A program made the position numbers. A stretch of 64,000 nucleotides of DNA from Escherichia coli (lineage in GTDB: Bacteria; Pseudomonadota; Gammaproteobacteria; Enterobacterales; Enterobacteriaceae), in assembly GCF_003991155.1 (NCBI RefSeq), contig NZ_CP031295.1. One strand, written 5' to 3'. Numbering within the stretch: position 1 is the stretch's first letter; every line of letters starts with the position of its first letter. Below are positions 27,001 to 36,000 of the stretch, piece after piece.

Positions 27001-30000
27001 AGTTGCTGCTCATAAAGGGGGCGTTTACAAAACCTCTGTTTCTGTTCATCTTGCTCAGGATCTGGCTCTGAAGGGATTACGTGTTCTGCTCGTGGAAGGT
27101 AACGACCCCCAGGGAACAGCATCGATGTATCACGGCTGGGTGCCAGATCTTCATATTCATGCAGAGGATACTCTCCTTCCCTTCTATCTTGGGGAAAAGG
27201 ACGATGTCACTTATGCAATAAAGCCTACTTGCTGGCCTGGGCTTGACATTATTCCTTCCTGTTTGGCTCTGCACCGCATTGAAACTGAGCTAATGGGCAA
27301 ATTTGATGAAGGTAAATTGCCCACCGATCCACACCTGATGCTCCGACTGGCCATTGAAACCGTCGCTCATGACTATGATGTCATTGTCATTGACAGCGCG
27401 CCTAACCTAGGTATCGGCACGATTAATGTTGTATGTGCTGCTGATGTGTTGATTGTCCCCACGCCTGCTGAGTTGTTCGACTACACTTCCGCTCTGCAGT
27501 TTTTCGATATGCTTCGTGATCTGCTCAAAAACGTAGATCTTAAAGGATTCGAGCCTGATGTACGTATTTTGCTTACCAAATACAGTAATAGTAATGGTTC
27601 TCAGTCCCCGTGGATGGAGGAGCAAATTCGGGACGCCTGGGGAAGCATGGTCCTAAAAAATGTTGTGCGTGAAACGGATGAAGTTGGTAAAGGTCAGATC
27701 CGGATGAGAACTGTTTTTGAACAGGCTATTGATCAACGCTCTTCAACAGGTGCCTGGAGAAATGCCCTTTCTATTTGGGAACCTGTCTGCAATGAAATTT
27801 TCGATCGTTTGATTAAACCACGCTGGGAGATTAGATAATGAAGCGTGCGCCTGTCATTCCAAAACATACGATTAAGACTCAACCGCTTGAAGATACTCCG
27901 TCATCGGCACCAGCTGCACCGATGGTGGATTCGTTAATTGCGCGCGTAGGAGCTATGGCTCGTGGCAATGCTATTACTTTGCCTGTATGTGGTAGGGACG
28001 TGAAATTTACCCTTGAGGTGCTCCGGGGAGATAGTGTTGAGAAGACCTCTCGGGTATGGTCAGGTAATGAACGTGACCAGGAACTGCTTACCGAAGACGC
28101 CCTGGATGATCTTATCCCTTCTTTTCTACTGACAGGTCAGCAGACACCAGCATTCGGTCGAAGAGTGTCTGGGGTCATAGAAATTGCCGATGGGAGCCGC
28201 CGTCGTAAAGCTGCTGCACTTACAGAAAGTGATTATCGAGTTCTGGTTGGTGAGCTGGATGATGAGCAGATGGCTGCATTGTCCAGATTGGGTAACGATT
28301 ATAGGCCAACAAGTGCTTATGAACGTGGTCAGCGTTATGCAAGCCGATTGCAGAATGAATTTGCTGGAAATATTTCTGCGCTGGCTGATGCAGAAAATAT
28401 TTCACGTAAGATTATTACCCGCTGTATCAACACAGCTAAACTGCCTAAATCAGTTGTTGCTCTTTTTTCTCATCCCGGTGAACTATCTGCCCGGTCAGGT
28501 GATGCACTTCAAAGAGCTTTTACAGATAAAGAAGAATTACTTAAGCAGCAGGCATCTAACCTTCACGAGCAGAAAAAAGCAGGAGTGATATTTGAAGCTG
28601 AAGAAGTCATCACTCTTTTAACGTCTGTGCTTAAAACGTCATCTGCCTCAAGAACTAGCTTAAGCTCACGACATCAGTTTGCTCCTGGAGCGACAGTGTT
28701 GTACAAGGGCGATAAAATGGTGTTAAACCTAGATAGATCTCGTATTCCAACTGAGTGTATAGAGAGAATTGAAGCCATTCTTAAGGAACTTGAAAAAGCG
28801 GCACTTTGATGCGGCACGTTTTAGTCTACATTTATCTGTCTTTACTTAATTTCCTTTAGCACAGGCTAGAAAACATAACTAACTGGCCTGAATATTATAT
28901 CTGGGACCACGGTCCCAGTTGTATTGTCGGTCTGATAATCAGTCTGGGACCACGGTCCCACTCATATTGTCGGTCTGATAATCAGTCTGGGACCACGGTC
29001 CCACTCATATTGTCGGTCTGATTATCGGTCTGGGACCACGGGCCCACTCATATTGTTAGTCTGCTAATCAGTCTGGGACCGCGGTCCCACTCGTATTGTT
29101 GGTCTGCTAATCAGTCTGGGACCACGGTCCCACTCATATTGTCGGTCTGCTAATCAGTCTGGGACCACGGTCCCACTCATATTGTCGGTCTGCTAATCAG
29201 TCTGGGACCACGGTCCCACTCATATTGTCGGTCTGCTAATCAGTCTGGGACCACGGTCCCACTCATATTGTTGGTCTGATTATCGGTCTGCGACCACGGT
29301 CCCACTCATATTGTTAGTCTGATAATCAGTCTGGGACCGCGGTCCCACTCGTATTGTTGGTCTGCTAATCAGTCTGGGACCACGGTCTCACTTGTATTGT
29401 CGATCTGATTATCAGCGTGAGACTACGATTCCATTAATGCCTGCCAGTGAGTGTGTGGAACATATCTTGGCCAGTGGCTTGGTCTGTGATGTGCTGCGTA
29501 TACCGGGTGAACCGCCCCGCCGCTTGTTTGACCGCTATATTCTGCGGGAGTTTTCTTGGAGGCACGGGATGAAATCCGCAGCATGGCGGATGCCCTGGCA
29601 AAAATCCGGAAATGATGACGATGGCGGGGAAAATCCCCGCCTTTTTCCTGCCGGTCCCCGGACAGAGCACAAAGGAAGTCGCCGCCGGCTCCGCTTTACC
29701 CGGCCATGCGGGGCATGGCCTTGTGGGGGTTCAGTTATGTGGACGTCGAGTCGTGTGCGGGCTGTGCCGTGCCTCCATCTTAGCCGGGCTGGCGTTGATG
29801 CAAGGGGCAACGCCGTTTCGCAAACCGCGCTTCACGTCGTTGCGGCGGGTCCCTGCCCGTTGTTCTGTCCGGTGCCATTCACCTGTTTAAGCCCCTGTCG
29901 CCGGGGGCTGATACAGCCACAACCGTCTCCGCCAGTCCAGGGGTGAAATGTACATCCCGCAAAACTTTTTGCCCAAAAGCAGGCAAAAACTTTTGCGGGA

Positions 30001-33000: not shown

Positions 33001-36000
33001 TACGGGCATGAACAACCTGACTTCAGGAAGGTCGTTTCCCTTCAGGAACGGGGATGAACGCGCGCCTGCGGCGCCCGTTCTTTTCCCCCGCCTTCTCTGG
33101 TTATGGCCTGTCAGAAATCACATCACCTTCCCTGTGATTATTCTCTTTTTCTTCCTGCTCTGATTCTGACTACTGCAGTGTTGTCCTGTCTGCCGGGCGT
33201 ACCTTCGGCTCCCGGCTGCCTGGCGGCATCCGGTCGTCAGGCCCGACTCCGACAGGCAGCTGCTGGCGCACCTGCCAGTCTCCGCCGAACCCGCTGGCGC
33301 GGTTTCGGGCTGTCGCTACGGTCCGATGCGTGAAAACCCCTGGCTTGCAGCGACCGTTCCGGTCGCGCCGCCTCTGTCGCGCCGTGACCTGCGCTCCCGG
33401 CATCCCGGCAAAAGGCGCCGGGATGTAAGGCGCAACGCCGTTTCGCAAACCGCGCTTCACGTCGTTGCGGCGGGTCCCTGCCCGTTGTTGTGTCCGGTGC
33501 CATTCACCAGTTTAAGCCCCTGTCGCCGGGGGCATAGACAGCCACAACCGTCTCCGCCAGTCCAGGGGTGAAATGCACATCCCGCAAAACTTTTTGCCCA
33601 GAAGCAGGCAAAAACTTTTGCGGTCTGCCCCCGGACAGTCGTTTCCGGCCGTGGCAGTGATGCCCCATGCGGCGAAGGTTCTCAAACAGGTGATGGTGAA
33701 TACCGGAGGGAACAAAAGGCAGGTCCCCGCAAAACGTCAAAACCGCGGCTCCCGAAACTCAACAGATGATGGGGGCTGAAAACCAGAGAGAGGAGAAAGC
33801 AGGATGAGTACCCGAAATATCCACGTTAACACCGCGTCGTACACGCTTCTTGTTGCCGGGAAGAAAAAAAACACCGGGGAAGAGTGGGACGTCCTGGAAT
33901 TCAGCAGCCTGACTGAGCTGAAAAAATATCGCAAAAGCCACCCGGAAAAGATGGCCTTCAGTTATAGCTACGCGCTCAGTCAGGGTGTGGATAAGCAGTT
34001 CCGCCATATCAACATTGCGGAAGCCGATCACTTCAAACAGTTCCTGCGTCAGATTAAGCGTGCCGGCCTCGATATCCGGGCGATCTGCTGACCGGATGTG
34101 ATGAATATCCCTCCTGATTGTTGCAATCTTGTTAATGGAGATCGGGGGGATGATATTAAGCGGAAAAATTTTTTATTAAATTTATTCTTTCATAAAGGAG
34201 TAGCTGTTATGCGATTAGCTTCCCGTTTTGGTCGGTATAATTCCATCCGCCGTGAACGTCCTTTAACGGATGATGAATTAATGCAGTTCGTGCCTTCGGT
34301 ATTTTCCGGTGATAAACATGAGTCCCGGAGTGAACGTTATACGTATATTCCAACAATCAATATCATCAATAAGTTACGTGATGAAGGTTTCCAGCCATTC
34401 TTTGCCTGTCAGAGTCGGATTCGTGATTTGGGACGTCGCGAATACAGTAAACATATGTTACGTCTTCGCAGGGAAGGGCATATTAACGGACAGGAAGTTC
34501 CTGAAATTATCCTGCTTAATTCACATGATGGTTCATCCAGTTATCAGATGATCCCCGGAATTTTTCGTTTTGTCTGCACAAATGGCCTGGTGTGCGGAAA
34601 TAATTTTGGCGAAATCCGCGTTCCACATAAAGGTGATATTGTCGGGCAGGTTATCGAGGGAGCGTATGAAGTGCTCGGTGTCTTTGATAAGGTCACTGAT
34701 AATATGGAGGCGATGAAAGAAATTCATCTTAACAGTGACGAGCAACATTTATTTGGCAGAGCTGCACTGATGGTCAGGTATGAAGATGAAAATAAAACGC
34801 CAGTGACACCTGAACAGATAATTACTCCCCGTCGTCGGGAAGACAAACAGAACGATCTCTGGACAACCTGGCAGCGGGTTCAGGAGAATATGATAAAAGG
34901 TGGATTATCGGGGCGAAGTGCCTCCGGGAAAAATACCAGGACAAGAGCCATTACAGGTATTGATGGTGATATAAGAATCAACAAGGCGTTATGGGTGATT
35001 GCCGAACAGTTCAGAAAGTGGAAGTCATGATAATATAAGTAAAGCCCCGAAAAAATTTTCGGGGCTTTACTTATATTATCATTTTTCGGCATTGCTGTGT
35101 CGTCTGATATACCTCAATTTCATCAACCGGATTTCCGGTTGTCTGTAAATATTGTGCCCGCGAAAAATGGTCTGGCAGGAGGCTGCACAGTTACCGGGTA
35201 TATATAAGATGGGTTCCCGCTTCGCGGGGCTTCGGCCAGTCAGTATTGTCACTCATATGATATTTTTGTGTGTGGCCTTCCATGCCGCTTTTGCGGCATA
35301 ACCGGTATCTGACAATGTCTGTAAGATTAATTGTTCTGCACGCTGTTAATTTCCGGAAGTGATTTCTTCGTGGCCGGAAGTCGGATACCTTTACTGCTTT
35401 TTATCCCAGTATAAATCCGGTAAACATCTGATGCGTAGGCAAGACGTCTCTGGTTCTGGCGTTCGGTTTTCCTGAATCCGGCATTGTATGCACCAACGGC
35501 CTCCCAGGTGACGCCCCATTTTTTAAATGCTATTGCCAGATAATAAGCACCGGTATAAATGTTCATGCAGGGATCTGTTGTCAGATGTTCTGGCTTAATT
35601 CCGTAGCGGGCCAGTTCGTTAAAATGCTGGGAATCTACCTGCATCAGTCCGCTGCCATATCCCGTTACCGGATTAATACCGATGGCATTAACCCGGTAAC
35701 GGGATTCTTGCCATGATATTGCTCTCAGTAAATCAGGATCTATTTTGTAATCCCGGCCTGCAAGATCAAAGCAATCAGTGGCCTGGCAGATCTCATTTAT
35801 AAACATCAGGCAGATGGCTAACATCCATTTTTTCATTTTTCCACCTCTGGTGACTTTATCCGTAAATAATTTAACCCACTCCACAAAAAGGCTCAACAGG
35901 TTGGTGGTTCTCACCACCAAAAGCACCACACCCCACGCAAAAACAAGTTTTTGCTGATTTTTCTTTATAAATAGAGAGTTATGACAAATTAGTTCTTCTT

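Follow-up and report, generated by a model that had tools for sequence, protein, structure and literature searches.

The closest described relatives of the elements reported here are promoters in the leading region of plasmid F. One of them, ssiD (D90178), is the Frpo of Masai and Arai (1997), and Samuel et al. 2024 give its sequence in their Supplementary file 4 (PMC11541004). Couturier et al. 2023 renamed this element Frpo1 and described Frpo2, which is 92% identical to it and lies upstream of ssb (PMC9849209). Early (zygotic) expression in the recipient and promoter activity restricted to single-stranded DNA (ssDNA) have been reported for both (PMC9849209, PMC12672017), and the expression of F ygeA in vivo depends on Frpo1 (PMC9849209). 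According to the 1997 work, as it is cited by Couturier et al., F Frpo1 is active in vitro, and transcripts from Frpo prime complementary-strand synthesis in vitro (PMC9849209). In laboratory matings, deletion of Frpo2 carried no measurable cost, whereas deletion of Frpo1 was costly (PMC9849209). Wen et al. 2025 mapped start sites and grouped Frpo1 and Frpo2 with ssi1 to ssi3 of ColIb-P9 as class 1 ssDNA promoters (PMC12672017). In a 2026 preprint, Frpo1 and Frpo2 are called ssp1a and ssp1b, and transcription-dependent priming of complementary-strand synthesis was observed in vivo (bioRxiv 10.64898/2026.01.09.698686). Here, we describe two elements of this kind in a 64,000-nt stretch of Escherichia coli DNA (the window; contig NZ_CP031295.1 of assembly GCF_003991155.1). 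One, copy 1, lies upstream of ssb, and the other, copy 2, lies upstream of a homologue of ygeA.

Copies 1 and 2 are very probably class 1 ssDNA promoters (Frpo/ssi/ssp1) of an F-like leading region, with copy 2 in the canonical form and copy 1 a rare derived allele that is probably the product of a template switch. Judged by alignment and position against plasmid F (NC_002483), they are the orthologues of the Frpo2/Frpo1 pair. The layout of two Frpo copies about 4 to 5 kb apart, flanking psiB-psiA-flm, is already known and was described in 2023. Over about 350 nt, identity to ssiD was 98% for the F sequence upstream of ygeA, 95.7% for copy 2, and 93.3% for copy 1. The first-pass annotation of the window had called the two repeats Frpo-like, and this homology, together with their place in the leading region and on the transferred strand, bears that name out.

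Copy 2 resembles F Frpo1 (ssiD, ssp1a) in its sequence (96.5% identity), its flanking genes, the short TCTG/CAGA side of an internal loop, and a hairpin of about 319 nt on the transferred strand. The two differ by a few point changes, such as ATAGAC in place of AAAGAC in one internal loop, and the predicted fold of copy 2 is the more stable (-108 versus -93 kcal/mol). Copy 1 corresponds to F Frpo2 (ssp1b), which lies upstream of ssb-yfjA-yfjB-psiB-psiA, in its position, its last 30 nt or so, and the ssb ribosome-binding region. However, the central 250 nt or so of copy 1 is Frpo1-like (94% identity versus 87% to Frpo2), and an asymmetric loop that is present in F Frpo2 has been lost. Copy 1 is thus a mosaic with a Frpo1-like center and a Frpo2-like 3' end, which suggests conversion or homogenization between the copies. 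The window also lacks yfjB, and its copies are 3.6 kb apart, compared to about 5 kb in F. The ssi1 to ssi3 elements of ColIb-P9 (IncI1) share with the window copies an invariant GTCCGGGGG/CCCCTGGAC helix with a G.T wobble, an A/T-rich apical stem, and an asymmetric loop of 4 nt opposite 12 to 14 nt with the motif GTnCATnT. They differ in that their lower stems are unrelated in sequence and in that there are three copies, one of them before ardA. As a separate observation, CP088367.1 carries an extra Frpo2-type copy (1113-1188) upstream of a DUF3560/methyltransferase gene block; some F-like leading regions therefore hold three class 1 elements.

The two window elements form a direct repeat of 371 nt (copy 1) and 362 nt (copy 2). 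A repeat search returned two blocks, 29797-29998 versus 33422-33623 (96% identity) and 30012-30167 versus 33628-33783 (97% identity). The first-pass annotation had drawn the elements as two GC-rich repeats of about 355 bp that were about 90% identical and ended about 20 bp before a gene. The repeats are real and not due to chance (as established by the alignment, fold z scores of -13.4 and -9.3, and a GC content of 57 to 59%), and the distance to the gene was correct. The elements are slightly longer than proposed, and their identity is higher, at 93.5% over 371 columns with the gap counted. The ATG of ssb, which had been placed at 30190, is at 30189, 21 nt past the end of copy 1, and the ATG of a 95-amino-acid open reading frame (ORF) is at 33804, 20 nt past the end of copy 2. 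Pairwise alignment, which had been proposed as a check, revealed a single large difference between the copies: 13 nt in copy 1, GATGTACATTTCA (29999-30011), stand where copy 2 has the 4 nt TCTG (33624-33627).

To compare the structures, the transferred strand of each copy was folded. Both copies formed a long imperfect hairpin of about 320 nt, and none of 100 shuffles of either copy was as stable. The tip of the copy 1 hairpin consists of 25 bp between 29940-29964 and 29991-30015, a C x C mismatch (29965/29990), and a further 8 bp between 29966-29973 and 29982-29989, closed by an 8-nt loop at 29974-29981. The central hairpin to which the first-pass annotation had drawn attention does exist, but it is near-perfect rather than perfect, owing to that mismatch; it is the mere tip of the longer hairpin; and one of its arms, quoted as CAAAAGTT, reads CAAAACTT. 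In the canonical form, the apical duplex is made of 16 bp and a separate 9-bp helix, whereas in copy 1 it is a single 42-bp stem with one mismatch.

It had been proposed that copy 1, with its perfect hairpin, is the functional prototype and that copy 2 has lost one hairpin arm, such that ssb would be driven early and the copy 2 genes would not be or would be driven through a different fold. Copy 1 does have the more stable predicted fold, both overall (-120.7 versus -108.1 kcal/mol) and at the tip (-45.4 versus -24.9 kcal/mol, a gain of about 20 kcal/mol). Nevertheless, the long hairpin is retained in copy 2 (z = -9.3). Moreover, F Frpo1, which has been validated in vivo (PMC9849209), has exactly the form of copy 2. 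In a four-way alignment, the short (TCTG) form was found in F Frpo1 and F Frpo2 as well as in copy 2, and the same form occurs in ColIb-P9 ssi1 to ssi3, two Salmonella candidates, a Serratia element, and elements from insect metagenomes. Since the short form extends across F, ColIb-P9, and more distant relatives, copy 2 is canonical; by these alignments, copy 1 is the derived form, in which a conserved asymmetric loop has been filled in. The polarity of the earlier proposal was thus reversed. A role for copy 1 as the prototype is highly improbable and, as to which form is standard, already refuted, and the prediction that the copy 2 genes are not driven early finds no support, since TCTG is the form of the active F Frpo1 (PMC9849209). 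If either copy is functionally altered, sequence comparison points to copy 1, the one before ssb.

The frequencies of the two forms agree with this polarity. In PLSDB, 2,761 plasmids carried the short junction, at 4,040 sites in all, and the long (filled-in) junction was present in 2 plasmids, AP022106 and CP088367, in both cases before ssb. The long junction was found in 1 of 5,426 complete E. coli genomes (AP022106). Among JGI/ENA metagenome contigs, at least 120 carried the short junction, and none was found with the long junction. TCTG was also present in 97 of the 102 full-length copies in the examined loci. A 63-nt long-junction query returned about 100 PLSDB matches, but all except two were left arms on the opposite strand and were discarded.

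The loop that separates the two forms was defined here, by alignment, as a family feature beside the GTCCGGGGG/CCCCTGGAC helix. Across the family, the transferred strand (T strand) has 4 to 6 nt (CAGA or CGGA type) on its 5' arm opposite 9 to 14 unpaired nt on its 3' arm, and the 3'-arm side usually contains the motif GTnCATnT. In copy 2, these two sides are CAGA and GATGTGCATTTCA on the T strand. Nine extra columns of the family alignment hold residues in copy 1 only. Copy 2 has the loop, and the loop is the one family feature that copy 1 lacks; on the alignments, copy 1 is still a class 1 member, orthologous by descent despite its loss.

To determine whether base pairing is conserved, the upper hairpin was aligned from ten members, including those of F, ColIb-P9, Serratia, and the insect metagenomes. 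In this alignment, 89% of the cells pair. Pairs changed on both sides numbered 11, compared with 6.7 ± 1.3 in shuffles (1 of 500 shuffles reached 11), and the covariation score was 0.206, compared with no more than 0.063 when the partners were slid. The GTCCGGGGG/CCCCTGGAC helix (30016-30020/29935-29939 in copy 1 and 33628-33636/33560-33568 in copy 2; family alignment columns 32-40 and 129-137) adjoins the position of the length difference and is nearly invariant in sequence, with a G.T wobble in 9 of 10 members, while the helices that flank it covary. This pattern suggests that the invariant helix makes a sequence-specific contact. Among 86 distinct natural copies, the right arm of the plus strand, which is the 5' arm of the transferred strand on the gene side, was far less variable than the left arm, where variation is concentrated in mismatch-rich segments. 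This finding suggests that sequence-specific information lies on the right arm or in the 5' untranslated region (UTR), although the direction of initiation is not settled thereby.

The fold also has a strand preference. For all seven elements compared (copies 1 and 2, F Frpo1 and Frpo2, and ColIb-P9 ssi1 to ssi3), the transferred strand folded 8 to 17 kcal/mol better than its complement, the difference for copy 1 being 14 kcal/mol, and it was usually the richer of the two in G.T pairs. A more stable transferred strand is expected if the fold has been selected on that strand.

The sequence of the fill-in bears on its origin. In the three plasmids that carry it, the 13-nt fill-in is the exact complement (13/13 nt) of the left arm of the same plasmid. 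Thus, the window has a GTACA fill-in with a TGTAC arm, whereas CP088367 has a GTGCA fill-in with a TGCAC arm. In canonical copies, the left-arm segment concerned stays unpaired, as one side of the asymmetric loop. In AP022106, the converted tract is 5 nt longer, so that CCCCC has become CCCCT, once more in agreement with the left arm, whereas the tracts of the window and CP088367 stop before this point. The nearest public relative of the window, AP027785, has the same left arm (the TGTAC allele) with TCTG on the right, and inside the copy 1 element it differs from the window by the fill-in and two point differences only.

Quasipalindrome template switching, described in E. coli and phage T4, is a complex multibase change by which an imperfect inverted repeat becomes perfect. 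The copy 1 allele resembles such a correction in that its new bases are complementary to the opposite arm and in that converted tracts of different lengths occur. It differs from the described cases in that these are natural alleles of a functional hairpin element and not of a reporter gene, and the mechanism is read here from its sequence signature alone. A change complementary to the element's own arm, with variable endpoints and on different backgrounds, is the signature of a template switch. The fill-in of copy 1 is therefore likely to be the result of a hairpin-templated switch, in which the nascent strand would have folded back and copied its own left arm intramolecularly. The alleles probably arose independently, although, with only three cases, shared ancestry followed by conversion may also account for them. 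That such switches appear to recur and yet stay rare is consistent with selection for the loop. All three long forms are in the ssb-proximal copy, which fits the cost-free deletion of Frpo2 and the costly deletion of Frpo1 (PMC9849209), although three cases prove nothing. A further arm-to-arm rearrangement was seen in CP124989.1 (1749-3650, 4501-4579), whose Frpo hairpin has its apex in the orientation opposite to that of every other copy; in this plasmid, a group II intron (ltrA) lies between the Frpo element and ssb.

The mechanism established in the literature for this family can be applied to the window by homology. After conjugative entry, the transferred (minus) strand would fold at each element into an imperfect hairpin of about 320 nt that mimics duplex promoter DNA. 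Host sigma-70 RNA polymerase would initiate on this fold and transcribe toward oriT before the complementary strand is made, with copy 2 expressing ygeA-ygeB and copy 1 expressing ssb-psiB-psiA. The transcripts could prime complementary-strand synthesis, and conversion to duplex DNA would remove the fold and turn the promoter off. On the T strand of copy 1, the 4-nt short side of the loop is replaced by 13 nt complementary to the long side, and the loop disappears from the predicted fold. A promoter core that takes in the invariant helix and the loop would leave copy 1 impaired or altered, whereas with a core in the lower stem the fill-in might bring only extra stability. We lean toward a copy 1 promoter that is reduced or altered rather than improved.

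Two specific ways in which the 13-nt segment might act were tried and rejected. The first was that the segment, when unpaired, serves as a single-stranded -10 element, but the A(-11) position is G, T, or C in active homologues. The second was that a new duplex promoter directed at ssb arises from the fill-in, but the best candidate, CAGGCA-17-TACATT (3/6 and 4/6 matches), is below the scan threshold.

A bolder reading is that the filled-in allele is a nonneutral natural loss-of-loop mutant and that leading-region hairpins are hot spots of template switching, perhaps during complementary-strand synthesis in recipients. The loop (GTnCATnT) would then be kept by selection for promoter function or to limit stability, and its loss would silence early ssb and psiB or create a roadblock. 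We consider this reading speculative and rather doubtful.

Several observations weigh against copy 1 as a rare template-switch derivative of a class 1 promoter. The rarity counts relied on exact 28-nt megablast words, and long alleles with extra single-nucleotide polymorphisms or of other subtypes may have escaped them. For the Frpo2-type fill-in, a search with one hypothetical junction found none, its single match being a point variant of the left arm. With three occurrences, selection against the filled-in allele cannot be proved. Frpo/ssi elements are described in the literature as stem-loops with -10 and -35 boxes, but a linear sigma-70 scan of copies 1 and 2 gave no match. The candidate hexamers on the 5' arm of the T strand, TTGACG-17-TTTTGT and TTGAGA-17-CATCAC, are weak, ambiguous, and mutually inconsistent, the 3'-arm hexamer TGGACN is likewise weak, and none was adopted. 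The loop may accordingly lie inside the promoter core or only at the hairpin tip. Finally, the fill-in could be a foldback or template-switch artifact of library preparation, sequencing, or assembly, to which palindromes are prone; each lineage shows the allele only once, and the window was examined as an assembly. However, two independent complete plasmid assemblies, produced by other laboratories, show a change of this kind as well; each fill-in agrees with the left-arm allele of its own plasmid, and the converted tracts are of unequal length. The change is also clean, with flanks colinear with AP027785. An artifact is therefore quite improbable.

Beside copy 1 lies part of a different element. 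Of a class 2 ssDNA promoter (F ssp2/Frpo3), the left flank and the left basal arm persist as a remnant, which joins copy 1 at a decamer common to both classes, GATGCAAGGG, with the class 2/class 1 junction at 29797-29806. The other arm of the class 2 element and the klcA/ardB operon are missing from the window, and an orphan TTGCAT-15-TAAGAT is left on the transferred strand within the remnant. Like the class 1 elements, ssp2/Frpo3 of F is a hairpin promoter that lies in the leading region and forms on the transferred strand. Its only sequence in common with class 1 is a motif of about 12 nt, GGGATGCAAGGG, which is the site of the window's deletion junction; the sequences are otherwise unrelated. 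In F, ssp2 stalls conversion and raises PsiB about 2-fold (bioRxiv 10.64898/2026.01.09.698686). Such roadblock activity is a feature of ssp2; class 1 elements, including copy 1, were compared by sequence and fold only.

The position of copy 1 exactly at this junction, in a window without the class 2 hairpin and the klcA/ardB operon, raises the possibility that the fill-in is adaptive. A tip stiffened by about 20 kcal/mol would make copy 1 an ssp2-like barrier to complementary-strand synthesis, prolong the single-stranded state, and compensate for the lost ssp2, given the effect of F ssp2 on conversion and PsiB. However, the long-form plasmid AP022106 keeps an antirestriction gene of the klcA/ardB type upstream of ssb, and the other, CP088367, keeps the adjoining upstream leading genes. 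Since the genes retained belong to the operon that the window has lost, the fill-in does not track the window's deletion, as judged by gene content. Many plasmids, such as AP027785, share this deletion and have the short form, and the allele has not spread. Furthermore, hairpin energy is no obvious predictor of roadblock activity, as F ssp2 (-82.5 kcal/mol) is less stable than Frpo1. An adaptive role as a barrier is thus improbable.

The repeats might instead encode a small protein, of 71 amino acids at 29948-30163 and 68 amino acids at 33573-33779. In line with this, the 9-nt length difference between the copies is in frame, and coding sequences are annotated here in RefSeq and public records (e.g., 4975-5190 of one), one of them under the name single-stranded DNA-binding protein (WP_182912587.1). 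The frame is nevertheless interrupted in other family members: F Frpo1 has a 1-nt deletion in it, and F Frpo2, ColIb-P9 ssi1 and ssi3, and the Serratia element have stops. There is no NCBIfam match, and conservation follows base pairing and not codons. We therefore regard a coding function as extremely improbable; the ORFs inside Frpo hairpins look like annotation artifacts. An Rfam scan found no family for the Frpo-type repeats, its only nearby matches being sok, FinP, and the traJ 5' UTR.

The surrounding DNA is an F-like backbone that is syntenic with F over sopAB/sopC, ssb-psiB-psiA-flm-ygeAB, oriT, and traM. In the window, the order is sopA, sopB, the sopC array, the short class 2 remnant, copy 1, ssb, psiB, psiA, hok/sok, and copy 2, followed by the homologues of ygeA and ygeB, an SLT gene, oriT, traM, and traJ with FinP (Table 1). 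The sequence GTGGGGTGTGGTGCTTT, which we take to be the F nic sequence, occurs once, on the minus strand. The nick-site sequence thus identifies the minus strand as the transferred strand and as the template for the leading genes. Consistent with this arrangement, ssb, psiB, psiA, and the homologues of ygeA and ygeB are all on the plus strand, and both copies are directly upstream of leading genes. Copy 2 lies about 2.2 kb and copy 1 about 5.8 kb from the nick-site sequence, and copy 2 would accordingly be the first of the two to enter the recipient.

Table 1. Features of the leading region and their positions in the 64,000-nt window
Feature	Position	Strand	Evidence
Remnant of left flank and left basal arm of class 2 ssDNA promoter (F ssp2/Frpo3), fused to copy 1 at GATGCAAGGG	29445..29806	+	87% identity to F 10171-10529
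Copy 1, putative class 1 ssDNA promoter (Frpo/ssp1 type) in F Frpo2 position	29797..30167	-	94.3% identity to F Frpo1, 86.7% to F Frpo2, 93.3% to ssiD
Long imperfect hairpin, transferred strand of copy 1 (predicted)	29815..30142	-	DNA fold, -120.7 kcal/mol, z = -13.4
Left-arm segment TGAAATGTACATC, exact complement of fill-in and presumed template	29944..29956	+	Read from sequence; copy classification
Apical loop of copy 1	29974..29981	+	Predicted fold
Fill-in GATGTACATTTCA in place of canonical TCTG, copy 1	29999..30011	+	Alignments; AP027785 has TCTG here
ssb (plasmid type), first gene downstream of copy 1	30189..30728	+	NCBIfam NF010292, 379 bits
psiB	31295..31732	+	NF010255, 277 bits
psiA	31729..32445	+	NF010258, 400 bits
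sok antisense RNA of hok/sok (flm) module, between copies 1 and 2	32551..32727	+	Rfam RF01794, 88.9 bits
Copy 2, putative canonical class 1 ssDNA promoter, orthologue of F Frpo1/ssiD/ssp1a, upstream of ygeA/ygeB homologues	33422..33783	-	96.5% identity to F Frpo1, 95.7% to ssiD
Long imperfect hairpin, transferred strand of copy 2 (predicted)	33440..33758	-	DNA fold, -108.1 kcal/mol, z = -9.3
TGAAATGCACATC (GATGTGCATTTCA on T strand), long unpaired side of asymmetric loop, copy 2	33569..33581	+	Fold and family alignment
TCTG (CAGA on T strand), short side of conserved asymmetric internal loop, copy 2	33624..33627	+	Alignments and fold
95-amino-acid ORF, ygeA homologue, first gene downstream of copy 2	33804..34091	+	95.9% synteny with F; same-sized coding sequence in relatives
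ygeB homologue (DUF932 protein)	34209..35030	+	Synteny; annotation in F and AP027785
F-type oriT nick-site sequence GTGGGGTGTGGTGCTTT	35920..35936	-	Exact match, 0.01 expected by chance

Elements of this type are textbook features of F-like plasmids, and their recognition in the window only confirms that the leading region is of the standard IncF kind. The comparison is of value mainly as a correction, in that the supposedly damaged form is the functional reference form. The new point is a small one: a rare allele that perfects the hairpin and lacks a loop that is conserved in F, ColIb-P9, and more distant relatives. Copy 1 is not a new kind of system, but it may serve as a ready-made natural mutant for the study of RNA polymerase on folded ssDNA, and it hints that leading-region hairpins mutate by template switching. 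If the loop is essential, the allele would help to define the recognition core of the promoters that control the first anti-defense and anti-SOS genes after plasmid entry.

Several other features of the window were observed. The body of ssb (30250-30750) holds 30 of the 82 differences between the window and AP027785, whereas its flanks are almost identical, which suggests that the ssb allele in the window is recombinant. The sopC centromere (28900-29415) consists of 12 tandem 43-bp repeats directly past sopA/sopB (26663-28809). Positions 1 to 25000 hold an aerobactin (iuc/iut) cluster that is 100% identical to those of several E. coli IncF plasmids, and the source of the window is a ColV-like virulence plasmid. 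A repeat of 768 to 773 nt occurs three times (3332-4099, 9365-10137, and 25620-26392), in two direct copies and one inverted copy that are 99 to 100% identical; it is presumably an insertion sequence, although the one ORF that was searched had no NCBIfam match.

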